Origin: a virus
Virus record (IMG/VR): IMGVR_UViG_3300033145_000668
Location: 31,175 to 95,174 of that record
DNA length: 64,000 nt
Direction: 5' to 3' (one strand)
Made by a program: the position numbers and the translations under genes. Below the pieces are notes generated by a model that saw nothing but the letters and a program-made list of their open reading frames with translations, searched no databases and had not been told where the DNA came from. How positions within the stretch are numbered: position 1 is the first letter of the stretch; each line of letters starts with the position of its first letter. This document shows, piece after piece, positions 1,270-63,238 of the stretch.

Positions 1270-2301
1270 ATGGTAAACGAAGGAGATTTAAATAAAATAA
1301 ACGGTAATATTTGGTATGCCGGAGATGTAACTGCAGTAGTTAATGCTTTTGGTTTTATGTTAAAAGATTACTCACAAGTAATTTTTAATGCAGCTTATGA
1401 AACTTGGGACTCCAGACTAAATGGAGGAACACCAGATTTTATTAATGTAGATTATGATATTTTTATTGCTGATACAGCAGATACTAAAACTAATATTTCT
1501 TATAATTCAACTAAGGATTATTATTATACAAATTATCCCGACGCAAGTTTTACAACTTTAGATGAATTTAATGATTCCAGTGTTGATACAGGAATATGGG
1601 ATGTTGCTGTTACTGGAACCGGTAGTATTGTAGAAGGTGTAGCAAATTTAACCATAAGAGTTTCTGGAGGAGCAGGAACAGCAACTTTAACAACCGACGA
1701 TGATATTTTTGGAAATTATGCGAATAATATTAGAATACAACTTGCAAACACAGTTGACGGTCCAGCTACAGGAAGTCAAAATATTGAATTATATGATGGT
1801 ACTGATACTGTTATTTTATTATCTAAATCTCAATTTACTGATAATGATTTAATTGATATATCTAAAATTGATGCAAATAATGTTAAAATTAGAATAAATG
1901 GTGGTGCTTGGACTAATAAAGATATTAGTTCGTTATCAGGAACAATTAAATTAAGATTTAATTTATCTGATTCTAGTACTTTTGATTGGAATATTAATTG
2001 GATAAGATATTCTTCTGATACAATCACATCAACTTTAATTACAAATGTTGCTACAACTGCAAGTGCAACAATAACAAATGCCATGTTGTGTATTAATAGC
2101 GAAGATAATACAGATGCTGGAATAACTTACTATCTTTCTGCTGATAATGGTGCAAATTATGAAGAAGTTACGCCAAATAAAATTCATACATTTACTGATA
2201 CAGGAACTGAATTAAAATTAAAAGTGGAAGAAACTGGAATTGAAATTTATGCAAAAGATTTTACGGTTTATGAATATCTAGTTAAATATAATTTATATTA
2301 A
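1270..2301 (+). CDS. Putative tail fibre / receptor-binding structural protein
   Basis: T/D/N/S-rich and beta-rich; C-terminal 'YYLSADNGANYEEVTP...TGTELKLK' motif; TATA at 1240-1247. Confidence 0.5.
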   Translation: MVNEGDLNKINGNIWYAGDVTAVVNAFGFMLKDYSQVIFNAAYETWDSRLNGGTPDFINVDYDIFIADTADTKTNISYNSTKDYYYTNYPDASFTTLDEFNDSSVDTGIWDVAVTGTGSIVEGVANLTIRVSGGAGTATLTTDDDIFGNYANNIRIQLANTVDGPATGSQNIELYDGTDTVILLSKSQFTDNDLIDISKIDANNVKIRINGGAWTNKDISSLSGTIKLRFNLSDSSTFDWNINWIRYSSDTITSTLITNVATTASATITNAMLCINSEDNTDAGITYYLSADNGANYEEVTPNKIHTFTDTGTELKLKVEETGIEIYAKDFTVYEYLVKYNLY

Positions 2302-2568
2302 ATGACATACAAAAAAGAAGAAAACTACTGCACACTAAGTCCAGATGAATTATTCGGAGTAAGATTTAACCACGGATGTTATTTACACGATAGACAATAT
2401 CGAAATGAAGTTAAAAAAAGAAAAACAAGAGCGCAAGCAGATAAAGATTTAAGAGATAATATTTACAAAACATATTCTAAGAAAAATAAAAAAGTAACTG
2501 GATATATAGTAAGTAGAATTTACTATTATGCGGTAAAGGTATTTGCTGGTAGTGCTTGGGTTAAATGA
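2302..2568 (+). CDS. Small phospholipase A2-like/DUF1353-like protein
   Basis: 'CYLHDRQY', 'ADKDL' and 'YYYAVKVFAG' motifs. Confidence 0.5.
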   Translation: MTYKKEENYCTLSPDELFGVRFNHGCYLHDRQYRNEVKKRKTRAQADKDLRDNIYKTYSKKNKKVTGYIVSRIYYYAVKVFAGSAWVK

Positions 2569-2604
2569 TGATGACATACAAATTAAATTTAAATATAATT
2601 ATCA

Positions 2605-2859
2605 ATGGTTAAACAAAATTGTGATTTATCTAAAGAAAATCGTATTATAATAAATACTGTAAAAGAAAATATCAATAGTATAAAAACTTCAGTCGAAAAA
2701 ATTGAAAAATCTAATGGTGAAATGTTTAATCATTTTACGGAAAGATACGAGTCTATGTTTGAGAGGTTACGAAGCAGAGTTCCTGTTTGGGTAACAATAA
2801 TAACAACTACTATGAGTTCTGCTTTAGCTGGATTAATAGTATTATTAATTACTCTTTAA
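2605..2859 (+). CDS. Coiled-coil protein with C-terminal transmembrane anchor (holin/XhlA-like position)
   Basis: Heptad-like N-terminus, hydrophobic C-terminus 'VWVTIITTTMSSALAGLIVLLITL'. Confidence 0.45.
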   Translation: MVKQNCDLSKENRIIINTVKENINSIKTSVEKIEKSNGEMFNHFTERYESMFERLRSRVPVWVTIITTTMSSALAGLIVLLITL

Positions 2860-3085
2860 TAAACATGAATATACATATTACAATATAAATAATTTAGTGT
2901 AAATATGTTTAAAAGCAAACAAATTGGTATATATATGTTAAAACAAAGCGAATTAATATAAAAATACAAAAAAGTATTAAAAAGTACTACTATAAAACTT
3001 TTTAGTTCTCAAAACGTATTTAAAAATAAATCTAATAGTCAAATATGACAATATATAATTACAAGGAGGAATATAAATAATTAAA

Positions 3086-3718
3086 ATGACACAAAAAAAT
3101 AACACTGGATTGAAATTAGCAGCAGCAGTAACTGTAGGTTTATTAGTTGGTGGTTTTGCAACAGCAGGATATGTTAGTGACGATAGTAAAATTGACGACC
3201 TTAACATGAAAATTGCTGAATTAGAAAATATGCCAGCATCAGTAGCAGAGATTATTGAAGTTGAAGTAGATAACGGAAACTTAGATTTAGTTCTAAACAA
3301 TTTATATGATAACGCGGAAGATAATGAATATTTAGAATTATTAACAGACGATTTAGATGATGATGAAGTTAGTAAAATTACAGATAGAATTGTATTCATT
3401 AATGAAATTAAATCATTAGCAGTTAAAGCAGTAAAAGCCGAATTATACGACGAAGTTGATATGATGGATGTAGTTGAAAATTCTAGTGGTACAATTACAC
3501 CAATTCAATTAGATGAAGATGAATTATCAAGATTAAGAATTAACGACGATGATGATGAATTATCAGTTACAGTTGATGATTGGTCAGATAAAGAAGCTAC
3601 TGTTGAAGTAACTGGAACTTTTAGACAAAAGGACGATAACTTCGATTTTACTGCAAACGCAGTATTTGAAAACGGAGAATTTGATGAACTTAACATCGTT
3701 AGTATTACTCAACAATAA
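3086..3718 (+). CDS. Highly acidic secreted/membrane-anchored protein
   Basis: N-terminal signal/TM 'LKLAAAVTVGLLVGGFATAG', D/E-rich body, GGAGG RBS, T-rich tract after the stop. Confidence 0.6.
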   Translation: MTQKNNTGLKLAAAVTVGLLVGGFATAGYVSDDSKIDDLNMKIAELENMPASVAEIIEVEVDNGNLDLVLNNLYDNAEDNEYLELLTDDLDDDEVSKITDRIVFINEIKSLAVKAVKAELYDEVDMMDVVENSSGTITPIQLDEDELSRLRINDDDDELSVTVDDWSDKEATVEVTGTFRQKDDNFDFTANAVFENGEFDELNIVSITQQ

Positions 3719-4951: not shown

Positions 4952-6079
4952 TTCTAATAAACATTCTTTTGCTTTAATTGCTGAATTGTTCCAAGTCCAT
5001 CTTTTAGAATCTTCTATAGCTATTTTACTTTTTTCAATAACTTCATTTTTATTATCATAAATATATCTCATTTGTTTTCTAATTTCTTTTATAGATGGAT
5101 ATTTCCACGATATATCTTCATACATTATATCCCACTTAACTTCTTTCATTTCTCCCTCCTTTAATAACCAACCATTTTCTTCGGTTACGAAATCAGATTG
5201 CCCACCATACTCCGTTGCCAAGACCGGTTTACCACAAGCCATTGCCTCCAACGGCGGAAGATTAAACGACTCTGCTAACGATGTAGTAACAAATACATCG
5301 CTTTTATTGTATAATGTGCTTAATTGGCTTAGAGTAATATTATCTGTAACAATGTTCAGTTTAGGTTTATTTGTATTTTGAATATCTAAATCTTTTATAT
5401 TTTTATCCAAGTCAACGCCATAACAAGCATTAATTTTTACTAACATCTCTGCATTATCTTCTTTAGTAAACTCTTCCATAAATGCTTTTATTCCATAACT
5501 TATTCCGCCTCTATCCTTCCACGAACTCGGCCAACCTTTGTTCATCATAAAAGTAAACTTATCACTAGCTTCTTTAGGTTGTTCTTCAAAAATAGATAAA
5601 TCAACTCCATGAGGAACTATTTTAATTTTATCTGCTATGTCAGGATGAAAACAAAAACTTTCTCCCTTATGTTCTACTCCCTTTATTGTTTGATTTAAAG
5701 TATTTAAAATAGCATTTTTTGTATGCATAGATGGAACCCAAATTTGAGTTACTCTTTCATCTTCTAAAATATTTAACCAACCTTTCGGTATTCGGTCGCC
5801 TTCGTGCACTACCATTCCTATGAATTTTTTGTCTTCGCATAGATAATATTCCCAACTCGGCGGAGTGCTTATTAATAAATTCACGTCAGCATCTAATCTG
5901 TTTCTTTGTATCATTTTTAATTCTTCGTCATTAACTCGTCTTAACCAATCTTCGGGTAGGTTAGTTGTAATACTAACGTCTATATTATCTAATTTATTCA
6001 GATGATTAGAAAATTGTCTAGCGTTATTTGAATATCCGTCGGTTCCAAAAAAAGACGAAATTATATTAACGTTTAACAT
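4937..6079 (-). CDS. Glycosyltransferase family 4 (GT-B)
   Basis: 'DGYSNNAR', 'VPHGVD', 'ESFNLPPLEAMACGKPV'; start set at MLNVNII. Confidence 0.9.
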   Translation of the reverse strand: MLNVNIISSFFGTDGYSNNARQFSNHLNKLDNIDVSITTNLPEDWLRRVNDEELKMIQRNRLDADVNLLISTPPSWEYYLCEDKKFIGMVVHEGDRIPKGWLNILEDERVTQIWVPSMHTKNAILNTLNQTIKGVEHKGESFCFHPDIADKIKIVPHGVDLSIFEEQPKEASDKFTFMMNKGWPSSWKDRGGISYGIKAFMEEFTKEDNAEMLVKINACYGVDLDKNIKDLDIQNTNKPKLNIVTDNITLSQLSTLYNKSDVFVTTSLAESFNLPPLEAMACGKPVLATEYGGQSDFVTEENGWLLKEGEMKEVKWDIMYEDISWKYPSIKEIRKQMRYIYDNKNEVIEKSKIAIEDSKRWTWNNSAIKAKECLLELKIN

Positions 6080-6683
6080 TTGAGTTCCCAAACAATTTAT
6101 TATCTGCACCGTGAAATAAATTCATAAATACTTGCAATTGCCAAATCCAATATTCTTTTCTTTTTTCCGCGTGTAACGTTCGATGACAACACCTACATAA
6201 TGAAATTAAATTATTATCGACGCAATTTAATTTATTATAATCTATATGATGAACAGATAGTGTTTCTTTTAATTTTTTATTTTTATTATTACATACTTGA
6301 CAAATAAGTTTATCTCTTCTTCTAATCTTTTGTCTTAATTCCTCAGTCCACTTTTCGGAATATCTTAATAATCCTCTATCTGCTATCCATAGATGATGTT
6401 CTTTACCTCTTTTCATTACTTGTAATTTTCGTTTTTCTCTTATAAGTTTTTTTGTTTTTTCGGTGTGAGGATGTCCTTTATGCGGAGGATTTATTTTGTT
6501 TAATCTACTTCTATTAGGATTCGGTCTTCCTCTTAACTTTTCAGCTTGTCTTTTAACACCTTCATTATTTTCTTTTGTAAACCCTTTTTTACTCGGATAA
6601 TCGTATTTTGTCCAAATATAAGATTTTGGATTTTTTGTTCCACCCTTTACAAATCTTCCCTTTTTATCTCTTTCTATTGTCAT
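6066..6683 (-). CDS. HNH homing endonuclease with NUMOD3-like repeats
   Basis: 'HTEKTKKLIR', 'RRDKLICQVC', 'VHHIDYNKLN..NNLISLCRCCH'. Confidence 0.85.
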   Translation of the reverse strand: MTIERDKKGRFVKGGTKNPKSYIWTKYDYPSKKGFTKENNEGVKRQAEKLRGRPNPNRSRLNKINPPHKGHPHTEKTKKLIREKRKLQVMKRGKEHHLWIADRGLLRYSEKWTEELRQKIRRRDKLICQVCNNKNKKLKETLSVHHIDYNKLNCVDNNLISLCRCCHRTLHAEKRKEYWIWQLQVFMNLFHGADNKLFGNSNVKR

Positions 6684-39143: not shown

Positions 39144-39500
39144 TTATTGAATATTATAATTATCAATACCATTTTGTATGTTGATAATATTCATACTATT
39201 TTTAATATGATATTCCCTTAATATAAATCTTAAATCTATTTTATCTATTAAAATTTCTTTATCTTTTTCTATAATAGTTTTTTCATAATCATTAATAGAA
39301 TTTACTTTTTCTACAGAAAGAGTTCTTCTTTTTTCAATATTAGATAATTCAAGTTCTTTGGATTTTTTATATTCCAATTCTAATAGAAATGTTTCTATAG
39401 CAATTAATTTTTCATATTCTTTTTTTAATTCTTCTATTTTAAATTCTTTTTCCAAAATTTCAAGTTCTTTTTCTTTTATTTTTATATTTAGTTTTTTCAT
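39144..39500 (-). CDS. Coiled-coil hypothetical protein
   Basis: K/E-rich ORF. Confidence 0.45.
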   Translation of the reverse strand: MKKLNIKIKEKELEILEKEFKIEELKKEYEKLIAIETFLLELEYKKSKELELSNIEKRRTLSVEKVNSINDYEKTIIEKDKEILIDKIDLRFILREYHIKNSMNIINIQNGIDNYNIQ

Positions 39501-39504
39501 TTTG

Positions 39505-39690
39505 TTTGAGTAGGCCCCAGGAACGAGTATTGCTACTGATTACCCGTTCTGCCCTTCCGGTGAGAGCTCGACGGCATTTCCTGAATATGATTAGTGAATA
39601 CGTGTACTAAATCTTGAATCGACGTGCCACACGACTTAAACCTTTGCTCCAAGTTTGAAAGGTCCAAGCCGAACGGGACGTCGGGATTTG
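39505..39690 (-). ncRNA. Structured RNA A (overlaps the 3' end of ORF 39533-40123)
   Basis: GC-rich island; minus-strand stems with G-U pairs (GGCUUGGACCUU/AAGGUUUAAGUC; GAACGGGUA/UACUCGUUC); shares an 18/19-nt linker with RNA B. Confidence 0.55.
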
Positions 39691-40123
39691 GTTGAATATT
39701 TGGTTGAATATTTGGTTTTTTATTATCTGGTACGTTAAATATCTGACATATTTCGTCCACCATTTTAACAAAATCTATTGGTATATCTGACATTAAATCT
39801 TTTAATCGATGAGCATTATCAGCGTGATTATCCACATCCACAGGTATATGCTCTTCTTTATTTTCTTCCCCTGTTTTGCTTCGGGTCTCCAGATAATTAC
39901 TAGTTTGAGCCTCGCAATTATCCTTTTTTCGCTGATTATTAATTTCAATTCTTTCTAATGGCTTTCCATCTAATGTTACCATTTTAGAGTTTATTATTAT
40001 ATCCATTTTTAACATTTCTAATATATTAATCATTTGACCATAATTTAATTTAGAGTCTTTTAATGTGTTTGATATTTTATCTGATACTATGTTTAGTTCT
40101 TTAATTGATTCTTGTTTATTCAT
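39533..40123 (-). CDS. Hypothetical protein with in-frame PNIQ repeat
   Basis: ORF track; the C-terminus runs into structured RNA A. Confidence 0.45.
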   Translation of the reverse strand: MNKQESIKELNIVSDKISNTLKDSKLNYGQMINILEMLKMDIIINSKMVTLDGKPLERIEINNQRKKDNCEAQTSNYLETRSKTGEENKEEHIPVDVDNHADNAHRLKDLMSDIPIDFVKMVDEICQIFNVPDNKKPNIQPNIQPNPDVPFGLDLSNLEQRFKSCGTSIQDLVHVFTNHIQEMPSSSHRKGRTGNQ

Positions 40124-41404: not shown

Positions 41405-41911
41405 TTATTTCTTTACCTTTCTCTTTTTCGTTTTAGTTTCTTTCTTTATTGGATGTTCTTTAATATATTTGTCTAGCTTTTCTTTTAACTCTCTTGTTTC
41501 TGATAATTGGTAAGAGGGTTTGAAATCGTGATTTTGATTGTATTGATTAAGACAATGATTTATTTCAATTCCTTCAACATCGTTTAAGTCTTCGAATGTC
41601 ATTATTACTTTATCTTCTGGATAGAAATATTTGTAGTATCCTTCGTTGTAACAACCGCACTCGGCGCAATATGTTGATAGTCCTATTTCCGTTAAACGGA
41701 ATTGCCGGTCTTCTTTATAATACATCACGCCGAAACCATCAAACTCTTCTACTATTATTCCATACCTTGGTTCGATGTAGAATAGGTTTGAGTGACAGTT
41801 ATTGCACATTGTTAATTGTTCTTGAGTTGAAAGTCGCCAGCCACTGTCTTGAAGCTCGATGCTATCCGGCGTAAGGATTAGCTTTGGTATCCGCTCTTTT
41901 TCTTTTATCAT
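41405..41911 (-). CDS. Hypothetical Zn-finger protein, first gene of the leftward unit
   Basis: CNNC and CAECGC; ATG at 41911 about 21 nt after TATA at 41933-41940. Confidence 0.6.
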   Translation of the reverse strand: MIKEKERIPKLILTPDSIELQDSGWRLSTQEQLTMCNNCHSNLFYIEPRYGIIVEEFDGFGVMYYKEDRQFRLTEIGLSTYCAECGCYNEGYYKYFYPEDKVIMTFEDLNDVEGIEINHCLNQYNQNHDFKPSYQLSETRELKEKLDKYIKEHPIKKETKTKKRKVKK

Positions 41912-42086
41912 AATTAATATAGAATTATTAGTTTTATAAATGTATTTATTGTGGATTATATATAATTTATTGTATTTTGATTGTGATTTTCGGGTGTTTG
42001 ATTGTCCTATATTTGTCATGAAAAATTTGCTTCTATTGTGTCCATTTTTCGAGATGCGATTTTGATTTGATTTATCCTTCATTTAT

Positions 42087-42421
42087 TCCAATTTATCCTT
42101 GATTTACCGAATCATGGTCTCAATTTATTATTTATCGCGGGCTTATACTTTTTTTTCTTAGTTTTAGATTTGTTTTTTAAATAAATTGGAATTAAAAAGA
42201 GTATAATACTAATAGAGCTCATATTAGCGCGAGATATCGCAATTCCTATTTATTATTTGAAATAAATTGGAGATAAATTGAACCCCCGGGTTACATGCTT
42301 AGTATATAAAGGCTTGCTTTTTTAATTCCAATTTATCTCCAATTTATCAAAACGATGGAAAGCTTTATAAATAGGCCACAGTTTCATTTATCGTTCATTT
42401 ATCGCCGAAAAATAAATTGGA
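42087..42421. repeat. Iteron-like ATAAATTGGA repeats in both orientations (candidate replication origin)
   Basis: Forward at 42181, 42262, 42412; reverse at 42087, 42327, 42338; extra partial copies; lies at the coding-strand switch. Confidence 0.7.
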
Positions 42422-42556
42422 ATAAAATTATTAATTTTAAAATAATCATCAATAATATAATTAATACTTTTATCATGGCCGTCATTTTCGTCTCTCAACT
42501 GTGGCCGCGATTTCGCGTAATTTTACCACATTTTGATTGGCCTTTATTTGTTATCG

Positions 42557-42777
42557 CGAATCAGTAAGAGAATATCAATAGAATTGGTAAACTTTATTGA
42601 TAATCTGCTACTGATTCGTATTAAATATAAAACCAGCAGGGATATGTTTACGTGTGCAAGTGGTTTCCCCCAGAAAGATTTTCCTATCCTTCTGTTGCTG
42701 GTTGAGTATGATTAGTGAATAGTACCGGGAACGCAATTAATAGTCGCACGCGCGTTAAACACATCAACGACGTTCCC
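42557..42777 (-). ncRNA. Structured RNA B, immediately downstream of a tRNA-like element
   Basis: Stems GGGAACG/CGUUCCC and AACCAGCA/UGCUGGUU, long terminal hairpin 42557-42618, linker shared with RNA A. Confidence 0.55.
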
Positions 42778-42847
42778 CGTAACGAATCGGATTTGAACCG
42801 ATGTATCGGGTATCTCCCGCGCACTTACCAGGCTGTGCTATCGCTAC
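42778..42847 (-). tRNA. tRNA-like element with shortened anticodon arm (no assignable anticodon)
   Basis: Acceptor GUAGCGA/UCGUUAC; D arm GCAC-AGCCUGGUAA-GUGC; CGGG-AGAUA-CCCG in place of the anticodon arm; T arm AUCGG-UUCAAAU-CCGAU; TTTAAATA box ~25 nt upstream. Confidence 0.75.
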
Positions 42848-42967
42848 CTATATTATACATAGGAAAAGTGAGTATTTAAATGCTTGCCCTCTCTACTAAT
42901 GGCCACTCTATTACGGAAATCTTTATAAGTGGCTTTGTCCTTATAATATTGATTTATGAAATCCCAA

Positions 42968-43065
42968 TTTTGGAATTTGGATTTTGGATTTTGGAATTTG
43001 GATTTTGGAATTTGGAATTTGGATTTTGGATTTTGGATTTTGGATTTTGGATTTTGGATTTTGCA
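42968..43065. repeat. Heptamer tandem array (WTTTGGA) x13 plus one degenerate unit
   Basis: Read directly from the sequence. Confidence 0.95.
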
Positions 43066-44257
43066 AATGTGTTTATTGAATTTAACATCGTCAGCGCTTA
43101 TATAGTATAATCATTGAGCGTATAGTATAATTTATAGGAAGAGCGATAGTATGCTGATGAGTGTTGTTCACTATGCATCCTCACAAAGAGATACAATTTT
43201 TTGCATCGTAAACATAGTTATTTGACGTTTTTTTATATAATATGATAATTATATCGATTGTTTTAAAATAATCTTTAAACAATTTAAAAATAATTTTTTC
43301 AATTTTTTTGGTTGTGAGGGTTTGAGAGGATTTTAACATAAAAATACATATAAATTTTGGTGAGGGTTTTGGACGATTTATACATATAAACACATATACC
43401 TATTGTTTACTTGGATATGTGATGTTCCAGTATACATGTTCGGTTCATCATATATGTTCCACTAAGTGACCACATCATAAGGATATTTCTATACTTACTC
43501 ATTTAGAGGTTATACTCCAAAGGAGAAAGGAAAACAATGTTTATAAACACCTGTATATTCTAACATACGCTTCCTATGGCCATAACATTTATAACTAACT
43601 ATGGTCTTATTCTTATTATGGAAACAAAAATATTTGAAGAAATGGAAGAAGAAATTTGGAAGTTGACAAAAAAATTAAATAAGTTATTATTTGATTTTGA
43701 AGACGAACCTAAACTTAGTTTAGAAGTTGTAGACTATTTAAATGAGGGAGGTAAATAAATGGATGAATATGAATTTGAGTATAGTGTTGAAGGTTTAGAT
43801 GAGCATATACAACTTTTGAAAGATTGTGTTAAGAATAAAGTTGATATACTTATTCACAACGAAGAAGAAGAGTGGTTTGTGTTGGGAGAACAAAAAGTTG
43901 TTATTTATAGTATGTTTGAAAGATATGGAGATGTGGATAGAGAAAAAATAACAATTGATGAGTTGATTGAAAAATGGGAAGAAGAAAAGAAAGAATTGGA
44001 AGAAGAAGAGAGATTGGAAAATATAAGAGAAGTGAGTGTAGATGAACATAAACAAATGCATTAATTAAATCACAATAGATTTTTTTTACTCGAATTCTCA
44101 AGTATATAAACCTTTTGGTATCCCTCTCCAATGATACTTTTTCTTTGTCATTCTATAATGAATACAAACATTTATAAACAAAAGGATGATAGTGTTTCTT
44201 TATAAAGATATGGAAAGATTTATAAATAAAAAACATGTCTGTTTGAGGACACATACC

Positions 44258-46155: not shown

Positions 46156-47994
46156 TGGTATATTATAATAATCGCGAAAGTGTTATTATGGGTTGAGGAA
46201 GAGGTAGCTGACGGACTTCATAATGCAACTTGGAAATGCTGAGCCTCAACAATACGGCCTTTGAAAGACAGGGAAGAGGGAAAGACCCTCACTTTATAAT
46301 CAAAATGAAAAACAAAATTAAATTTGTTATTGCTATTGTGATTGTTGTTTCAATAATCGTTTTTAGTATTATGAATTCAGGATGTCCGAATGGCTATGTT
46401 ATGGCTGAGGATTATTCTTGTGTGATTGATACTTTTTGGAATAATTAAATAAAAGGAGGTATAAAGTGAAGAACTATAAAGATTTGAAAGTGTTGGAGAA
46501 ATACATACAGGAGAATGGATTTGAAGATTATTTTAAGGTCGGTGGAATAATTTATACACAACAAGAATATGATGAAGAGGGTAAGCAAGTTAGTTACGGG
46601 AATAAGAAAAACGAAACGGGGTTTATCGTTAATACAGAAAATAGGTATGAATTAGGAACTAAAGACGCAGAAATAGAAGAATTTGATGAGTGGTATTTGA
46701 GAAATGATATCAGTTATTTAGAATAAGTAGAAATTAGATTTTTTTTTATTCGAAAAAGCCGTTTATAAGTATTTGCATTGTCCATTGTCCTATGTCCGAA
46801 GACCATAACACTTATAAAGGCCTTTTGTCTTATTATATTATGGAAATAACAAATACTGAGAGAGAGGAGAAAGAAGTTTTAAAAGTGCTAAAGCACAAGT
46901 TAAAGCTTTTAGCTACTGCACCAAACTTAGACTATAAGATGGTGTTAGAAGTTAAGCAAAAAGTTTTATTTTGTGAAGAGAGCAAATTAATGATGGTAGA
47001 TGATAAATTCGGATATGGTTGGATAAGTTTTGAAGATATGGCTGATTTCGCAAGAAAAAGAGATTTTGAATTTATTCAGATTGTGGAGGTTGTACGAAAT
47101 GAATAATACTCTAAAATTAAATTTCAGTTATTTTTTAACTGAAACGGCGAGTGAGAAATCACTCGCTTCATAATCATAATGGAAAATCAAGAAATGGCAG
47201 AACAAGTAATCGGCGCTGAAATGCTGGACTCAATTAAAGATGATTTAGAGCGATTTGGATTAGATGAGGAGTTATTGGATTTAAAATGAAAACCTATTGC
47301 AGACAAAACAAAGTGCAGAAATCAATAAGTGATATAATAAAGCCGTTTATGAAAGATGGAGATAGAATCGCGGAGTTGAAGAATGCTGGCATCGATACTT
47401 ATACCCCTCTTATATACCGGATAAAACTAGGCGCTTATTTAATAGCACTCGGTATATCGCTATTCATCCCGTTTACTACAAGCGGGTTAATTATAATTGG
47501 AAGGAGGTTATTGAAATGAGTTATGAAGATTTGAAATGTCCAGCGTGTGGATGTGTGGGTAAGAATACTATCGACCCTTATATAGTATCAGAGCATCCGA
47601 ATGTGGAGGAGGATTGGGTAGTATGTCAGTGCGGTGAGTATATAAGAGCAGTAAGCGAGCTCGAGTAAGCGAGCTTGAGTAATGAGCTTTGTATATATGT
47701 AGCGACAGCGAGGGGCGCGGCAAGCATATATGTATAGGTGTAGACAACACATGTCGGAAGCGTATGATAAAGTAGCGTGTATAGCATTGCTACATAATAG
47801 GGCGCATGGTTTAAAAGCGACAGTGAAAAAAAAGTTGTTTCTACATACGAAAATTTTGCGCAACGTATTTTTGGGGAGGTTTTTTATATAATTAATAATT
47901 CTACGCACACCCGCTGCATACTTGTCGCATACCCACACCAGATTATATATAATCCTCAGTCAATACATTTATAAATTTAATAATTTTATTATTC

Positions 47995-48212
47995 ACAGGT
48001 TCATAACCCATAAGCTCCTAAGAGGCGAAAATATCTTTGCTTAGCGGCGAGGAGGAGCAATCTCTACAATCGTTATGAAATCCCTAATTAAGCGCTGATG
48101 CGTGGGTAACGATGCTGCGATGTCACATTCCAATAAATTTAGAGTCTGATGATATCGCAAGCAACTTTCCCGAACTCGACGTGACAGCTAGCACCGTCGG
48201 GTCGGGGTGCAT
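47995..48212 (+). ncRNA. Structured RNA C
   Basis: TATA at ~47968; stems UUCAUAAC/GUUAUGAA, GCUCCU/AGGAGC, UGCGAUGUCA/UGAUAUCGCA, CCCGA..CUCGACG/CGUCGGG..UCGGG. Confidence 0.55.
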
Positions 48213-48310: not shown

Positions 48311-48685
48311 ATAATAAATAAACTACCGTGGGATATCTTATACTCTATAGGAATTGTAATTATCTTATACATACTAATAACAAAATGATAAAAATGAAAA
48401 TGGAGGAAATAAGCAATGAAAATTAGTAGAAGTTTTAACAAGATGATTAAGTTATCAGAAAAGATTAGCAAAGCAAAAGAAGAAGCTAAAGGAATGATTG
48501 TAGATATTGGTGTAGAACGAGAAGAACTTGACACATTAGAAACACAAATCAAGTCAGTTATTAAATTATAATAAATAGTAACATTTATAAACCAGTAGTG
48601 TTTAGTATTATAGTCTTTAATGACGCGAAAGAGGACGGAGATGGAAAGCCGTTAATCAGATGAAGGAGGACTCGGCGGGCTATAG

Positions 48686-48755
48686 GGATGCATAGTGCAG
48701 TGCTAGCATTTCTGCGATGCCGCAGAAGACCCAGGTTAAATTCCTGGTGCATCTT
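48686..48755 (+). tRNA. Degenerate tRNA-like element with 6-nt anticodon loop
   Basis: Acceptor GGAUGCA/UGCAUCU; D GUGC/GCAU; UCUGC-GAUGCC-GCAGA; T CCAGG-UUAAAUU-CCUGG. Confidence 0.65.
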
Positions 48756-48760
48756 ACTTT

Positions 48761-48850
48761 CGAGAAGAATCTGGAAACAGATTAGAAGTAAAACGAGGCG
48801 TTAGTGCACGCCTATCCTCATTGTTGCAGGTTCGAATCCTGCCTCTCGCA
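48761..48850 (+). tRNA. tRNA-like element: perfect T arm, partial acceptor, non-canonical D and anticodon regions
   Basis: GCAGG-UUCGAAU-CCUGC; CGAGA/UCUCG; AAUCUG-GAAA-CAGAUU; AGGCGU/ACGCCU. Confidence 0.5.
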
Positions 48851-49463
48851 TAAGGCGTGTAGTTGGTGGCGTCGTAAAAAAAAGCACTACTTGATACCGA
48901 TAATTCGGTACTTGGGGATGGCAAAACTAACCTCTTATGAAAATAAAGCAGGAGAACACATCCCCAGCCCTTAAGGGCAATTATAATCAAAATGACAGAA
49001 TACAAATGCCCAAGTGAAATAGAATTAGAAGAAAAGATACATTTTCAAGAAACAATGAAGAGAAATAGAGAAATAGATAAAGATTTTTATATGTTTGAAG
49101 AAATTTCAAAAGGAATTATGAATTTATAATAAAATGAAAAACAAAAATAAAATTGTATGTGAATTAAATTGTTATTTAGATGGAGATAGTTTATGTATTA
49201 TAAAAAATAATTTTATTAATTTACAAGAAAGTGAAGCAGTTTTTATAAAACCCACAAAAAAACAATTAAGAGAAATAATTAAATTAAAAAGGAGAAAAAG
49301 ATGAAAATACAAAGAAAAATAATTGAAGATATTACTAAGATTGTTTTAAGACAATTAAATTTAGATGGGGTAATTGATGGTAATAAATATCAAGGAAAAG
49401 ATTTTGATAAATTAATTAACAAAATAATTTTACTATGAGAAATATAGGAGAAAAAACTTTAAA

Positions 49464-56775: not shown

Positions 56776-57031
56776 GTCTTCTGAAAAATTTATTATTTTT
56801 TTATTTAATATTAAAAACAAAATGACAAAAATCGATTACGAAAATGTAGGAAAAGATGTAAAGGAATGTCTTTATAGTTTTAATGATAAGTTTTCTAAAT
56901 TGGAAAGAAAAAAAGATGAACTGGATAGTCAATTTTTAAAAAGAATTGTTAATAACAGAAAAAGATGTTTAAATAAATTAACAAACGACAAACATTTATA
57001 AAAGACAGGTTCCTTTATATTATATAATAAA

Positions 57032-58075
57032 ATGATAACTAAAATACTAAAAGAAGTAAATAGAGTAATGAAACCGCATGCTGTATATGCCGTTGGTGGA
57101 TGTGTGCGTGACCATTTATTAGGAATCGAGCCAAAAGATTACGATTTTTGTACTTCTGCTACTCCAGAACAAATTGAAAAATGTATTAAATCTAAATCTA
57201 TGAGAGCATATTTAACTGGAAAGAGATTTGGTACTATTGGGTGTAAAGTAAAAGTTGATGGTAATTACCACATGATTGAGATAACAACTTTTAGGAAAGA
57301 GCAGTATGCAAAAGGAGATAGAAAACCCGACGTTGAGTTTGTTACTTCGTTACATGAGGATTTAAGTAGAAGGGATTTTACTATTAATAGCATGTGTGCA
57401 AGATTGGTAAACGACAAGCTAAAAATAGTAGACCCATTCAACGGTCAGGAAGATTTGAAGAATGGAATAATTAGAGCAGTTGGTAATCCTAAAATAAGAT
57501 TCAAAGAGGACCCATTGAGAATTTTAAGATGTGTAAGGTTTGCTTGTAGATTTAATTATGAAATAGAAGAAAAAACAAGAAAGAAAATGGAAAGTGGAGC
57601 AATCCAAATTTTAAATATTAGTAAGGAACGGTGGGTTATAGAGTTGGATAAGATTTTACAATCTAATAATGTTAGAAAGGGATTAGAATTATTATGGGAT
57701 ACTAAATTGTTTATTTATATGATACCAGAATTGTCTTTACAGCGAGGGTATGAGCAAAACTCTCAATATCATAATTTTACATTAGATGAGCACACTATTA
57801 AAGTTGTAGAAGCGGTTAGAAAGGATACTGATGATTTGAATTTACTTTGGGCTGCGTTACTTCATGATTGTGGAAAGGTTTTTTGTAAAACAGAAAATAA
57901 AAAAGGTTATAATAATTATATATCCCATGAAAATATAAGTTCTGAAATTGTTTTAAAATATGTTAATTATTTAAAATGGAGTAATGAAAGAAAAAATAAA
58001 GTATATGATTTAGTTCTCAATCACTTAGATGATGATTGTGAACTTAGAAAATATGATAACTTAGGTAAAGTGTAA
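57032..58075 (+). CDS. cca: Class II CCA-adding enzyme (tRNA nucleotidyltransferase) with HD domain
   Basis: 'VGGCVRD.LLG..PKDYD', flexible loop 'RKEQY..GDRKP', 'RRDFTIN', 'EDPLRILR', 'LLHDCGK'. Confidence 0.9.
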   Translation: MITKILKEVNRVMKPHAVYAVGGCVRDHLLGIEPKDYDFCTSATPEQIEKCIKSKSMRAYLTGKRFGTIGCKVKVDGNYHMIEITTFRKEQYAKGDRKPDVEFVTSLHEDLSRRDFTINSMCARLVNDKLKIVDPFNGQEDLKNGIIRAVGNPKIRFKEDPLRILRCVRFACRFNYEIEEKTRKKMESGAIQILNISKERWVIELDKILQSNNVRKGLELLWDTKLFIYMIPELSLQRGYEQNSQYHNFTLDEHTIKVVEAVRKDTDDLNLLWAALLHDCGKVFCKTENKKGYNNYISHENISSEIVLKYVNYLKWSNERKNKVYDLVLNHLDDDCELRKYDNLGKV

Positions 58076-58128: not shown

Positions 58129-58266
58129 ATGAAAATAACAAAAAAACTAGTGAAAATAGGAGATAGTATTGGTATCATTATTGATAAACCAATACTTGAA
58201 AAAATGAAATTGAAAGAAAAAGATTTAGTTGAAATAAATATTAAAATAGTTGAAAATGAAGAATAA
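58129..58266 (+). CDS. AbrB/MazE-like DNA-binding protein, not in the ORF track
   Basis: MKITKKLVKIGDSIGIIIDKPILEKMKLKEKDLVEINIK...; TTTAAATA box upstream. Confidence 0.75.
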   Translation: MKITKKLVKIGDSIGIIIDKPILEKMKLKEKDLVEINIKIVENEE

Positions 58267-58930
58267 AGGTTCTTGGAAGAAAGGTCATGTCCCTTGGAAT
58301 AAAGGTAAAAAGTATAAATTAGAAGAAATTCATAGTAAAGAAAAAGCTGAAGAAATAAGAATAAAAATGAGAGACTCCATGGTAGGTAAAAAGCACACAG
58401 AAGAAGCAAAAGAAAAAATGAAAAAAACTTATAAAGAAAAATATGAAACCGGATATGAAAATAATAGAAAAGGAAAAGAAACACCAGAATCTACTAAAAT
58501 AAAATTAAGTAAAGCAAATAAAGGTCGCAAACCTTGGATAACTGGCGGTCACCATACGGAAAAAACTAAAGAAAAAATAAGTAAATCTAAAATTGGAAAT
58601 AAACATACAGAAAAAGCAAAAATGAATATGAGAATATCAAGATGTAATTATATAAAAAAGGTTGGTGGACCTACGTTTGGCAAAAACGAAACTCAAATAC
58701 TAAATGAATTTGAATTATCTAATGGTATTAAGTTGATAAGGCAATATAGTATCGTAGGATATTTAATAGATGGATGTTGTAAAGAATTGAATTTAGTGGT
58801 TGAAGTTTATGAAAAGTTTCATGAAAATCAAAAAGAAAAAGATGAAAAAAGAAAACAAAAAATAATAAATAAATTAAATTGTGATTTTGTAATAATAGAA
58901 GATAATTTTGATAACGAGAGGACAAAGTGA
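58250..58930 (+). CDS. NUMOD3-repeat endonuclease (DUF559/Vsr-like catalytic domain)
   Basis: 'PWNKG', repeated 'HTE..K.K.', 'RQY..GYLIDG...VEVYE..H'. Confidence 0.75.
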   Translation: MKMKNKGSWKKGHVPWNKGKKYKLEEIHSKEKAEEIRIKMRDSMVGKKHTEEAKEKMKKTYKEKYETGYENNRKGKETPESTKIKLSKANKGRKPWITGGHHTEKTKEKISKSKIGNKHTEKAKMNMRISRCNYIKKVGGPTFGKNETQILNEFELSNGIKLIRQYSIVGYLIDGCCKELNLVVEVYEKFHENQKEKDEKRKQKIINKLNCDFVIIEDNFDNERTK

Positions 58931-59124: not shown

Positions 59125-60246
59125 ATGAAACAAGAATTAAAAAAAATATACAAAAGAAACACAAACGGAAGTGTAAATCAATGGCAAATATTTGTTGTTG
59201 ATAATAGTTATTACACGGAAGAAGGAATATTGGATGGTAAAATAACTACATCTAAATCTAAAATAATAGTTGGTAAAAACATAGGAAGAAGCAATGAGAC
59301 AACTGATTATGAGCAAGCTATTAAAGAAGCTGAAGCTAAACAGACGAAAAAATTGGATTCTGGATATTCTGAAGACCTAAATAAAATAGATACAGCAAAA
59401 ACATTTTTCGCTCCGATGTTAGCACATAAGTACGAAAAATATAAAGACAAAATTGAATTTCCATTATTAGTATCTCCGAAGATAGACGGAGCTAGAATGG
59501 TAATTCAAGAAGATGGTTTGTTCACTAGAAACGGAAAAGAATATGTTTCGTGCCCACACATTACTGAATTATTTAAACCACTTTTCGAAAAATATCCTAA
59601 TTGGGTAATTGATGGAGAAGTATATGCTCACGATGTTTCATTTGAGAAAGTTATGAGTTTAGTTAGAAAAAGTAAACCAACTGAGGAAGATATACAAGAA
59701 TCTGAAAAGATGATTAGTATTTATATTTTTGATGGTGTTGTTGACGACACTAATTTAGGATTTGAAAAAAGGTTTGAGTTGATTAGAAAAGAAATAAATA
59801 ATATTATCGGAGAAACAGAAAAAATAAAATATGTTGAAAATAATATAATAACATCAGATGCCGAAGTAGAAAAATATCATAGTGAATTTGTTGCTGATGG
59901 TTATGAAGGACTAATGATAAGAATACCAAATTCTATTTATGAAAACAAAAGAAGTAAGATGTTGTTAAAATACAAACATTTTTTGGATGAGGAATTCAAA
60001 ATTATAGATGTTGTTGAAGGATTGGGTAATCGTTCAGGAATGGCAGGAAATCTTGTGTTAGAGATGGAAGATGGAAAAACATTTTCTTCAGGAATAAAAG
60101 GCGGAGAAGATTATTATAAATATTTATTAGAAAATAAATCTAAGATTATTGGAAAATTTGCTACAATTAGGTATCAAAATTTATCCGATAAAGATAAGTT
60201 ACCGAGGTTTCCGGTTTGTGTAGATATTGGGAGGATTGATTTATGA
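59125..60246 (+). CDS. lig: ATP-dependent DNA ligase
   Basis: 'PMLA', motif I 'SPKIDGAR', 'DGE', 'FD', 'EGLM', 'LKYK', OB tail 'PRFP'. Confidence 0.92.
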   Translation: MKQELKKIYKRNTNGSVNQWQIFVVDNSYYTEEGILDGKITTSKSKIIVGKNIGRSNETTDYEQAIKEAEAKQTKKLDSGYSEDLNKIDTAKTFFAPMLAHKYEKYKDKIEFPLLVSPKIDGARMVIQEDGLFTRNGKEYVSCPHITELFKPLFEKYPNWVIDGEVYAHDVSFEKVMSLVRKSKPTEEDIQESEKMISIYIFDGVVDDTNLGFEKRFELIRKEINNIIGETEKIKYVENNIITSDAEVEKYHSEFVADGYEGLMIRIPNSIYENKRSKMLLKYKHFLDEEFKIIDVVEGLGNRSGMAGNLVLEMEDGKTFSSGIKGGEDYYKYLLENKSKIIGKFATIRYQNLSDKDKLPRFPVCVDIGRIDL

Positions 60247-60638
60247 CAAAATATAAATGGAAAGTAAATTATGTAAATGAAGGACAATTTGATATGTTAG
60301 ACTATCCAGAAAAATATATTGGAGAGCATGAAATTATTATAAAATTATCTTCTTCTATTGAATTTTTTAGTAAAGAAGTAAATGATTTTCTTAAAAAAAA
60401 TAAAATAAAAAATGTTTATGCACATAATACAATAAAAAATAGACAAGATTGGACTTATAATATGAAGAAAAGTGTTAATACTATTATGATAAGAGATTTA
60501 AAAAAAGATAGCGATGATAAAAAAGAAGTAGAAAAAATTATGAAGTTAATTCCAAAATTACATAAAGACCCTAAATATAGAGCAAAGAGAAAATTAATAG
60601 AAGAAATTAAAAATAGAAAAGGACAAGGAGTTATATAA
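60243..60638 (+). CDS. Hypothetical protein
   Basis: Coupled ORF in the operon. Confidence 0.5.
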   Translation: MTKYKWKVNYVNEGQFDMLDYPEKYIGEHEIIIKLSSSIEFFSKEVNDFLKKNKIKNVYAHNTIKNRQDWTYNMKKSVNTIMIRDLKKDSDDKKEVEKIMKLIPKLHKDPKYRAKRKLIEEIKNRKGQGVI

Positions 60639-61405
60639 TGATAAATACATTAGAAGATATGCAAAAATTTGAAAGATACTCAAATATAAATATATTGAAA
60701 GATTGCTTTTTTGCAATCAGGGTTGATGGTCGGTCATTCCATACAGAAGTTAAAAAAATGAAAATGGAAAGACCTTTTGATAAAAAATTAAGGAATGCTA
60801 TAAATAAGGCTATTAAATCTGTCATGAAAGATTTCGGATGTTTATTCGCATATACCGAAAGCGATGAAGTGACTTTTTTATTCTCTAAAAATTCAGAATT
60901 ATTTGATAGAAGATTGGAAAAATTAATATCATTGGTTGCTTCAAAAATGAGTGTTGAATTTTCAAAAAGTAAAATAGCAAAAGGAACATGTCCAACATTT
61001 GATGCAAGAATTCTAGAACTACCATCTAACGATTTAGTAATTAAATGTTTTCAATGGAGACAAATGGATTCTCATAGAAATGCAATTTCTACTCAATGTT
61101 TTTGGAGATTAGTTAAAGAAGGAGAATCAGAAAGAAAGGCAACAAAAATAATGGAAGGAATGAAAGATGCAGATAAAAATGAATTACTATTTAAAAGATT
61201 TAATTGTAATTATAATAATACTCCAGAATGGACAAGAAAAGGTACTATGTTTTACATAAAAGAATATAATAAGAAAGGTTATAATCCAATTAAAAAACAG
61301 AAAGAGAATGCAATAAGAAAAAAGATAGTTTGTGAAAACATCACGGTTCATTTTAGAAAAGATAATCTTAAAGATTGGTTAAATAAAGGAGTGAAAATCA
61401 TTTAA
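60638..61405 (+). CDS. thg1: tRNA(His) guanylyltransferase / Thg1-like protein
   Basis: 'IRVDGRSFH', 'PFD', 'YTESDE', 'FDAR', 'WRQMD..RN', 'KNELL', 'RKGT'. Confidence 0.92.
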   Translation: MINTLEDMQKFERYSNINILKDCFFAIRVDGRSFHTEVKKMKMERPFDKKLRNAINKAIKSVMKDFGCLFAYTESDEVTFLFSKNSELFDRRLEKLISLVASKMSVEFSKSKIAKGTCPTFDARILELPSNDLVIKCFQWRQMDSHRNAISTQCFWRLVKEGESERKATKIMEGMKDADKNELLFKRFNCNYNNTPEWTRKGTMFYIKEYNKKGYNPIKKQKENAIRKKIVCENITVHFRKDNLKDWLNKGVKII

Positions 61406-62485: not shown

Positions 62486-63238
62486 ATGAGTAAATATAAA
62501 TTAAATAAAAAATGTATTATATGCAATAAGAATATTTTAGATAAAAATAAAACTGGGTTTTGTAATAAACATAGAGATAGAACAGGAAAGAATAATCCAT
62601 TTTATGGTAAAAAGCATACAATAGAATATAAAGAAAAAGCAAGAATTAGAAGTTCTATATCGACTAAAAAACTTTGGCAAGACCCAGAATATAGAAATAA
62701 AGTTATTAAAGGAACTTCTAAACCTAGACGAGAAAAATTTAAACAGGAGCAAAGTGAAAGAATAACACAGTGGTATATAGATAATCCAGAACAAAGAGAA
62801 ATTAGAAGAGAAAAAATGAAAGAATCTTGGAAGAATGGAAAGATTACTCCAAATAAACGTGTTATTTCAAATAAAAGTAAAAAAGAAAAAAAATTATTTT
62901 TGAAAATAAAAAGATTATTTATCAACGCTGATGATAAATGTACTATACACTCCGAAACTAATTGGTTTCTTCCGGATATTTATATTGAAGATATAAACCT
63001 AATTATAGAATTTAAAGGAAATTATTGGCACGCTAATCCTAAATATTATAATGAAGACGATATTGTTCATCACAATATTATAGCTAAAGATATTTGGGAA
63101 AAAGATAATTTAAGAGAAAAAGAATTAGAAAAATTAGGTTATGAAGTATTTGTAGTTTGGGAAGATGATTATGATAATGATATAAATTATATTATTAAGA
63201 ATATAGATAGTTATAATTGGGAGAGTTGTTCAATATGA
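62486..63238 (+). CDS. NUMOD3 + Vsr/DUF559-like homing endonuclease
   Basis: 'NPFYGKKHT', 'PDIY...IIEFKGNYWH', 'LGYEVFVVWE'. Confidence 0.8.
   Translation: MSKYKLNKKCIICNKNILDKNKTGFCNKHRDRTGKNNPFYGKKHTIEYKEKARIRSSISTKKLWQDPEYRNKVIKGTSKPRREKFKQEQSERITQWYIDNPEQREIRREKMKESWKNGKITPNKRVISNKSKKEKKLFLKIKRLFINADDKCTIHSETNWFLPDIYIEDINLIIEFKGNYWHANPKYYNEDDIVHHNIIAKDIWEKDNLREKELEKLGYEVFVVWEDDYDNDINYIIKNIDSYNWESCSI

Follow-up and report, generated by a model that had tools for sequence, protein, structure and literature searches.

The window analyzed here, the whole stretch of DNA under study, spans 64,000 nt (bases 31175-95174) of the IMG/VR record IMGVR_UViG_3300033145_000668. The record is 95,174 bp long, with ~28% GC and an estimated completeness of 68%. 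It encodes the major head protein, terminase, tape-measure protein, and tail fibers of a tailed virus, together with a family B DNA polymerase (PolB). The locus lies inside a 1.5-kb gene-free region of the window in which the direction of the genes and the cumulative GC skew switch. It forms a GC-rich island, with 44-53% GC against a background of 28%, and on the minus strand it carries a promoter-like element, a tRNA-like element, and a series of predicted RNA structures (Table 1). One flank holds ~15 copies of a 7-nt unit (ATTTTGG/AATTTGG, 42946-43085), and the other holds inverted ATAAATTGGA repeats (42080-42430). Placed as they are at the skew switch, these flanking repeats make up a candidate replication origin or control region.

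Table 1. Features of the locus, tRNA-related genes of the same virus, and handle tRNAs of other viral sequences. Positions are those of the window unless marked otherwise.
Feature	Position	Strand	Description
Promoter-like element	42871-42887	minus	GCAAGCATTTAAATACT; contains the TATA-like box TTTAAATA
tRNA-like element	42778-42847	minus	70 nt; matched by Rfam RF00005 and by a model of the virus's own tRNAs; MFE fold a cloverleaf
Truncated "anticodon" arm	42807-42819	minus	CGGG-AGAUA-CCCG: 4-bp stem, 5-nt loop
Hairpin 2	42727-42777	minus	RNA positions 71-121; begins at the base after the discriminator; several G-U pairs
Predicted single-stranded linker	42704-42726	minus	23 nt; unpaired in MFE folds of 220- and 298-nt transcripts
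Domain 3	42631-42703	minus	RNA positions 145-217; three-way: 7-bp closing stem and two hairpins
Hairpin 4	42557-42618	minus	long imperfect inverted repeat, 29-nt arms
Second 17-mer copy	42301-42317	minus	570 nt downstream, within the ATAAATTGGA repeats; the leftward protein genes begin after it (first gene 41405-42082)
Class II CCA-adding enzyme with HD domain	57032-58075		
ATP-dependent ligase	59125-60246		
Thg1-like enzyme	60638-61405		
RtcB	63217 to window end		
Ro60-like protein gene	record 2005-3537	plus	510 aa; directly after the tRNA array; outside the window
Handle tRNAs, examples (IMG/VR loci L108-L187)	L182:2063-2415, L187:2115-2467, L129:4225-4772		
Handle tRNA, Synechococcus phage B23	L107:4854-4963		annotated as "tRNA-Undet"

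The original prediction had described a cloverleaf with canonical acceptor, D, and T arms at this position, and this description held. The Rfam model RF00005 aligned with the element end to end (model positions 1-71) at 47.8 bits (gathering score, 29), with an E value of 9e-9 in a 1.4-kb search and 4.1e-7 across the whole 64-kb window. Judged by this match, which is beyond chance, the element is certainly tRNA-derived. The Rfam run with the default filter passed over it, and ARAGORN did not call it as a tRNA. A model built from 12 ordinary tRNAs of the virus scored the element at 46.3 bits. The RF00005 score lies at the bottom of the range obtained for the real tRNAs of this virus (47.8-68.9 bits), despite the incomplete anticodon arm. 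When folded in isolation, the element adopts exactly the cloverleaf as its MFE structure (-22.4 kcal/mol), and the cloverleaf is also the MFE structure inside 220-nt and 298-nt transcripts folded from the first base.

The element is laid out as a 7-bp acceptor stem with one G-U pair, a D arm with a 4-bp stem and a GG-containing loop, a shortened anticodon arm, a 4-nt variable region, and a T arm with a 5-bp stem and the loop UUCAAAU. The discriminator is G (42778), and CCA is not encoded. An intact elbow and acceptor had also been claimed, and all the corresponding nucleotides of the elbow and core were found in place: U8, A14, G15/C48, G18 G19, G26/A44, U54 U55 C56, and A58. The anticodon arm alone is altered, by at least two separate changes, and the nucleotides of the tertiary pairs are intact. 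Identity to any of the virus's own tRNAs is at most 69%, so a fresh pseudogene copy of one of them is unlikely.

A normal tRNA anticodon arm has 5 bp and a 7-nt loop, and U33 is near-universal. Set against a canonical tRNA, the element has the cloverleaf, the acceptor, D, and T arms, and the elbow, and lacks the 5-bp/7-nt anticodon arm. The short stem and 5-nt loop that the original prediction had reported in its place were recovered exactly (Table 1), and the Rfam alignment counts 5 nt in the anticodon region against 9 in the model. Opening one pair gives a 3-bp stem and the 7-nt loop GAGAUAC, which, as read from the sequence, places A at the U33 position. The alignment and the fold leave no plausible decoding with such an arm and agree with the earlier view that the RNA cannot decode; on these models, the element is almost certainly unable to do so.

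The "TATA box" of the original prediction corresponds to TTTAAATA at 42880-42873 on the minus strand, with 25 nt between the box and the first base of the tRNA-like element. The hexamer TATAAT also occurs at 42857-42852 (minus strand), and the stretch can be read as TTTAAA-17-TATAAT; sigma-70 consensus sites showed no enrichment in this genome. The 17-mer pattern GCAAGCNTTTAWATACT has exactly two occurrences in the window, one at the promoter-like element and one downstream of the structured RNA, and the position of the second makes it a likely outer limit for the RNA unit.

The box is of a kind found repeatedly in this virus, which lends further support to reading it as a TATA box. Across the record, TTTATAAA was observed 43 times against 24.6 expected. 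TTTATAAA/TTTAWAWA boxes cluster ahead of start codons at a distance of 21-31 nt, in many cases exactly 29 nt. Most of these start codons have no Shine-Dalgarno sequence, and examples of the form (A)ACA/ATG-TTTATAAA stand at 56995, 59088, 55870, 43540, and 22040 (minus strand). A simple count of TTTAWATA gave no enrichment, the enrichment being limited to the TTTATAAA form and its spacing. Shine-Dalgarno sequences precede 29 of 68 genes inside operons versus 18 of 60 first genes. TTTATAAA boxes also stand ahead of two further RNA islands, at ~47970 and 48584. By sequence, the arrangement is similar to that of archaeal TATA promoters whose transcripts have no leader or a very short one, and the archaeal-like box spacing predicts an RNA start within a few nucleotides of 42847.

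Directly after the element, ~220 nt of stems had been proposed on the minus strand. This region (42777-42557) resolved into three folded modules, with a z score of -7.0 on the minus strand versus -4.9 on the plus strand. The fold of 42540-42850 gave a z score of -6.5, and 0 of 100 shuffled sequences were as stable. No ORF of at least 50 aa was found on the minus strand at the locus, and the source annotation calls no gene there either. The ORF-free sequence and the better folding on the minus strand both accord with a structured RNA headed by the element. Two short ORFs of 26 and 28 codons were given little weight. The 28-codon ORF (42399-42485, minus strand), which lies downstream of the structured RNA, encodes a very hydrophobic peptide ending in RR and may be a chance product of AT-rich DNA.

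Hairpin 2 folds at -23.7 kcal/mol (z -3.0) on the minus strand versus -12.3 kcal/mol (z -0.9) on the plus strand. This difference of ~11 kcal/mol fits an RNA read from the minus strand. Domain 3 shows the same preference (z -4.3 versus -3.0) and is followed by the U-rich run UUUUAUAUUU (~42630-42619, minus strand), a possible end of transcription as judged from the sequence. Hairpin 4 is stable whichever strand is read (z -8.0 and -6.7), so it cannot be assigned to either, and no U-tract comes after it. It could be part of the RNA or a DNA-level repeat of the control region or replication origin.

The linker carries the 15-nt word UAUUCACUAAUCAUA (42721-42707), of which a second copy lies at 39600-39586 on the minus strand. 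The exact repeat has an E value of 0.029 and is followed by a collinear 11-mer (42616-42606 and 39541-39531). The second site (39500-39700, minus strand) has 46-47% GC and coincides with the 3' end of a 196-codon ORF. The shared 15-nt word is in the same reading frame at 42.7 kb and 39.5 kb, and the 11-mer holds the stop codon of the ORF. The fold at the 39.5-kb site is unremarkable (z -1.6). From these sequences, the shared words may represent a common RNA module or a trace of recombination, and the locus may contain recombination debris. Complementarity of the linker to viral tRNAs or other viral transcripts was not above that of shuffled controls.

Other RNA islands were observed in the same window. 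A second promoter-driven island extends over 48584-48950 on the plus strand, with a TTTATAAA box at 48584. It contains a tRNA-like element at 48686-48755 that scored 46.8 bits and was called tRNA-Gln CTG by ARAGORN. Its "anticodon" loop has 6 nt, and degeneracy affects both the D loop, which lacks GG, and the T loop (UUA). Further on, at 48801-48893, a perfect T arm lies inside a weak YrlA-like match (23.6 bits, E 0.029, against a gathering score of 69). The abnormal tRNA-like element within this unit is taken as a recurrence of the same design in this virus. A third GC-rich island (47968-48210, plus strand, 42-49% GC) stands behind a TTTATAAA box and is followed by six tandem 10-nt A-rich units. 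Rfam returned no match on this third island.

Relatives of the locus were sought at several levels. A blastn search with 42200-43200 returned no relative among GenBank phages. In IMG/VR, neither the exact 20-mer of the short arm nor GTAC plus the 15-nt linker word identified a relative. The neighboring 225-aa protein had no relative in IMG/VR, and it retrieved only itself from a set of 5.8 billion proteins. A pattern for a tRNA shorter by 4 nt gave one match in IMG/VR, an ordinary tRNA-Ile by ARAGORN, and six matches in metagenomes, all unrelated. The nearest IMG/VR relative by PolB (42% identity) had no tRNA-like element at all. The locus thus stands as a single sequence, with no relative in GenBank phages, IMG/VR, or metagenomes as searched.

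The virus is well supplied with tRNAs and with genes acting on them. At least 16 tRNA genes lie at record positions 1-1825, none with an encoded CCA, and the record begins inside a tRNA gene. A CCA-adding enzyme, a Thg1-like enzyme, an ATP-dependent ligase, and RtcB are encoded in the window, and the gene for a Ro60-like protein lies outside it (Table 1). Three homing-endonuclease-like genes with NUMOD3 and DUF559 domains (58250-58930 and 62486-63238, both plus strand, and record 5686-6357) are interspersed among the tRNA-repair and packaging genes. The Ro60-like protein has the Pfam domains DUF2828 and DUF7788 and a vWA metal-site motif, and it belongs to the DUF2828 branch rather than to Pfam TROVE. 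Its AlphaFold model (pLDDT 88.9) had Ro60 structures as its best Foldseek matches, namely frog Ro60, Thermus phage Ro60, and Deinococcus Rsr, all over the full length, at an E value of ~5e-7 and a TM score of ~0.55. On this model, the protein is predicted to fold like Ro60. Among GenBank phages, 711 records contain relatives of this protein, frequently next to tRNA arrays. The tRNA-like element, at record position ~73950-74020, lies ~70 kb from this gene. The original prediction had stressed features that tRNA enzymes read, and a virus with its own CCA enzyme, Thg1-like enzyme, RtcB, and Ro60-like protein offers a fitting context.

The affinities of these genes diverge. PolB relatives that are 85% and 69% identical occur only on contigs of 12 kb and 6 kb, and those in cellular genomes are all archaeal, at only 24-29% identity. 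The nearest relatives of the CCA enzyme, the Thg1-like enzyme, and the Ro60-like protein come from bacteria and bacteriophages. PolB and the promoter layout therefore point to an archaeal host, whereas the RNA-repair genes look bacterial or phage-like, and the host may belong to either domain.

Bacterial and phage Ro60 proteins have partners that are tRNA mimics handled by tRNA enzymes (PMC4201824), and the Ro60 of a Thermus phage binds Y-like RNAs that are encoded by phage (PMC12135203). Based on these published partners, loci with relatives of the Ro60-like gene were searched for RNAs of this kind, using 80 IMG/VR loci and a model of this virus's tRNAs. In 30 of the 80, one to three full-length matches of 110-126 nt lay within ~0.7 kb of the Ro60-like gene, and ARAGORN did not call them. 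Aligned with one another, these RNAs are tRNAs with a ~45-nt insert at the anticodon loop, and the insert consists of a covarying ~7-bp hairpin followed by ACAGCAA (the "handle"). Some of them keep a complete anticodon arm after the insert, with loops such as CUGGUAA and CUUGUAA.

These handle RNAs and the element share several properties: both go with the same protein family (DUF2828), both are tRNA-derived with altered anticodon regions, and the handle RNAs lie in or near tRNA arrays. They differ in that the handle RNAs are longer and carry the insert and conserved handle, whereas the element is shortened and has no handle. A model built from 50 handle RNAs gave no match at the tRNA-like locus and found no member in the 95 kb of this virus. 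A scan of the same 95 kb for a ~7-bp hairpin followed by C-n-G-C-A-A returned only weak AU stems inside genes. With no handle RNA in the 95 kb and an element devoid of the handle, the link to Ro60 is circumstantial. The tRNA array runs on into the third of the genome that the record lacks, and the real partner RNAs may lie there.

Taking these observations together, we tentatively read the locus as a separate, promoter-driven non-coding RNA gene. Its product would be a stable, non-decoding tRNA mimic that matures as tRNAs do and serves in the contest between virus and host over tRNAs, and the downstream RNA would be a second product. Transcription would start within a few nucleotides of the 5' end of the mimic. 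Since no CCA is encoded, we propose that RNase Z would cut after the discriminator G and that a viral or host CCA-adding enzyme would then add CCA. We infer this maturation from the established behavior of CCA-less tRNA genes and tRNA mimics. Of the two stable products expected from this, the first would be a 70-nt tRNA-shaped RNA that reads no codon. The second would be a downstream RNA of ~145 nt, or ~225 nt with hairpin 4, whose new 5' end would be buried in a hairpin.

The tRNA-shaped product would be the main effector, occupying proteins that recognize the body of a tRNA. Candidate targets would be host defense enzymes that cut or modify tRNAs, or the virus's own Ro60-like and repair proteins. 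To an enzyme that cuts anticodon loops, the mimic would offer no normal 7-nt loop. It could thereby serve the same program of tRNA supply and repair as the tRNA array, the CCA enzyme, the Thg1-like enzyme, and RtcB. A role as decoy or adaptor is a plausible speculation, being in keeping with the tRNA-repair theme of the genome. Its specific form is decidedly improbable, namely that a virus with archaeal-looking promoters makes CCA-tailed, anticodon-less tRNA decoys for host tRNA-cutting enzymes, or handle-less adaptors for the Ro60-like protein.

A decayed tRNA gene would account for many of the same observations. In that case, the element would be a relic that lost part of its anticodon arm, possibly after once carrying a loop insert, and the nearby stems would be unrelated repeats of the control region. 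The element is a singleton with no detectable relatives, the region is full of repeats, and the more degenerate element at 48686-48755 indicates that tRNA decay does occur in this virus. In other phages, moreover, tRNAs with loop inserts accompany the Ro60-like gene, and the arm could have become shorter when such an insert was lost imprecisely. However, the damage is confined to the anticodon arm, whose remaining 4-bp stem is perfectly paired, and neither the other stems nor any elbow or tertiary position is affected. The element also has no close paralogue and hence is not a recent duplicate. We favor a maintained, transcribed RNA over a relic because of this confined damage, the element's own promoter-type box at the right distance, the strand-specific structure that continues from the base after the discriminator, and the recurrence of the design at 48.6 kb. 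Decay is thus rather doubtful as an explanation, but it stays a serious rival, given that the searches returned no relative of the locus.

The element could instead act purely as a processing handle, recruiting RNase Z, with or without RNase P, to free a downstream effector RNA that works, for example, through its open linker. Hairpin 2 begins right after the discriminator, so that cleavage by RNase Z would hide the resulting 5' end inside its stem. Folding predicts an open linker, and a second GC-rich locus shares its 15-nt word. Precedents exist in mascRNA/MALAT1 (PMC11693755) and in plant mitochondrial t-elements (PMC1920247). An ORF, however, contains the second copy of the linker word in the same reading frame, and no viral target complementary to the linker was found. 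The element also stands at the very 5' end, where its sole use would be to detach the downstream RNA; transcription start alone could define a 5' end without a 70-nt mimic. This position at the 5' end of the transcript, beside the promoter, makes a mere handle less likely than a role for the tRNA-shaped product, and we regard the handle as an unlikely account of the locus.

A transcript linked to a replication origin, acting as primer precursor or origin-opening activator with the tRNA-like fold as a processing or protein-binding site, is very improbable: the locus does lie in a gene-free region at the switch of gene orientation and GC skew, between the 7-nt tandem repeats and the inverted repeats toward which transcription from 42880 would head, but divergent transcription explains the skew switch equally well, and stable RNA-DNA hybrids are disfavored by an RNA strand that is not rich in G. 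To our knowledge, no replication system employs a tRNA mimic for such a purpose.

Several other identities were considered and rejected. For archaeal intron or BHB processing, a scan of 42380-42870 on the minus strand gave only AU-rich chance candidates and no motif. An attP integration site is contradicted by the lack of a tyrosine integrase in the record and by the presence of both tRNA halves in the element. For a group I intron, ribozyme, tmRNA, RNase P RNA, and C/D or H/ACA RNA, there was no Rfam match at E values up to 10 and no motif by eye.

Viruses answer host attacks on tRNAs with spare tRNAs and repair enzymes. If the preferred reading of a non-decoding tRNA mimic is true, a purpose-built look-alike would add a third tactic, mimicry, as decoy or adaptor. 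If the improbable decoy or adaptor form holds, resupply and repair would be joined by a new front in the struggle between virus and host for tRNAs. The locus is a compact candidate for such a tactic, in a virus that joins at least 16 tRNAs, a CCA enzyme, a Thg1-like enzyme, RtcB, a Ro60-like protein, and archaeal-looking promoters. Even if the RNA is a mere relic, the locus points out the central control region in a group of viruses that has been little sampled.

The element can be compared with three known groups of tRNA look-alikes. YrlA Y RNAs (RF02553; PMC4201824; PMC12135203) are likewise tRNA-mimicking, non-decoding, and found in genomes with a Ro60-type ring protein, and some occur in phages and are linked with RtcB-type repair genes. 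In YrlA, the Ro-binding stem is built from the RNA ends, which occupy the "anticodon" position, and the T arm precedes the D arm. In contrast, the element has the normal tRNA order, ends at the acceptor, and is not adjacent to the Ro60-like gene. An identity as YrlA was rejected on this unpermuted order, on the ~70 kb that separate the element from the Ro60-like gene, and on the absence of an RF02553 match in 42000-43400 at E values up to 10.

Plant mitochondrial t-elements are also tRNA-like and non-decoding, and they are RNase P and RNase Z sites that define the ends of neighboring transcripts (PMC1920247). They differ in being organellar, in flanking mRNAs, and in having no sequence relation to the element, for which an equivalent function is putative.

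Look-alikes of the mascRNA type are substrates of RNase P and/or RNase Z and acquire CCA (PMC11693755). The structural prerequisites of processing as in mascRNA or t-elements, an acceptor and T arm with no encoded CCA, are present in the element. No match to RF01684 (mascRNA) was found in 42000-43400 at E values up to 10. The element shares with the mascRNA/MEN-beta RNAs of that family, and with the tRNA-miRNA transcripts of MHV68, the inability to decode, a reduced anticodon arm, and the retention of the acceptor and T arm. Those RNAs are eukaryotic and nuclear or Pol III-driven, and the hairpins at the present locus are not miRNA precursors. In the MHV68 transcripts, the tRNA look-alike is likewise processed by RNase P and/or RNase Z and receives CCA. 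The tRNA-like part of the gammaherpesvirus transcripts contains Pol III promoters. The herpesvirus analogy drawn in the original prediction rests on these internal promoters, which have no counterpart here, and in this respect it is not supported. Both MHV68 and this virus place a tRNA look-alike 5' of hairpins; the promoter comes from the tRNA part in MHV68 and from an upstream box in this virus.
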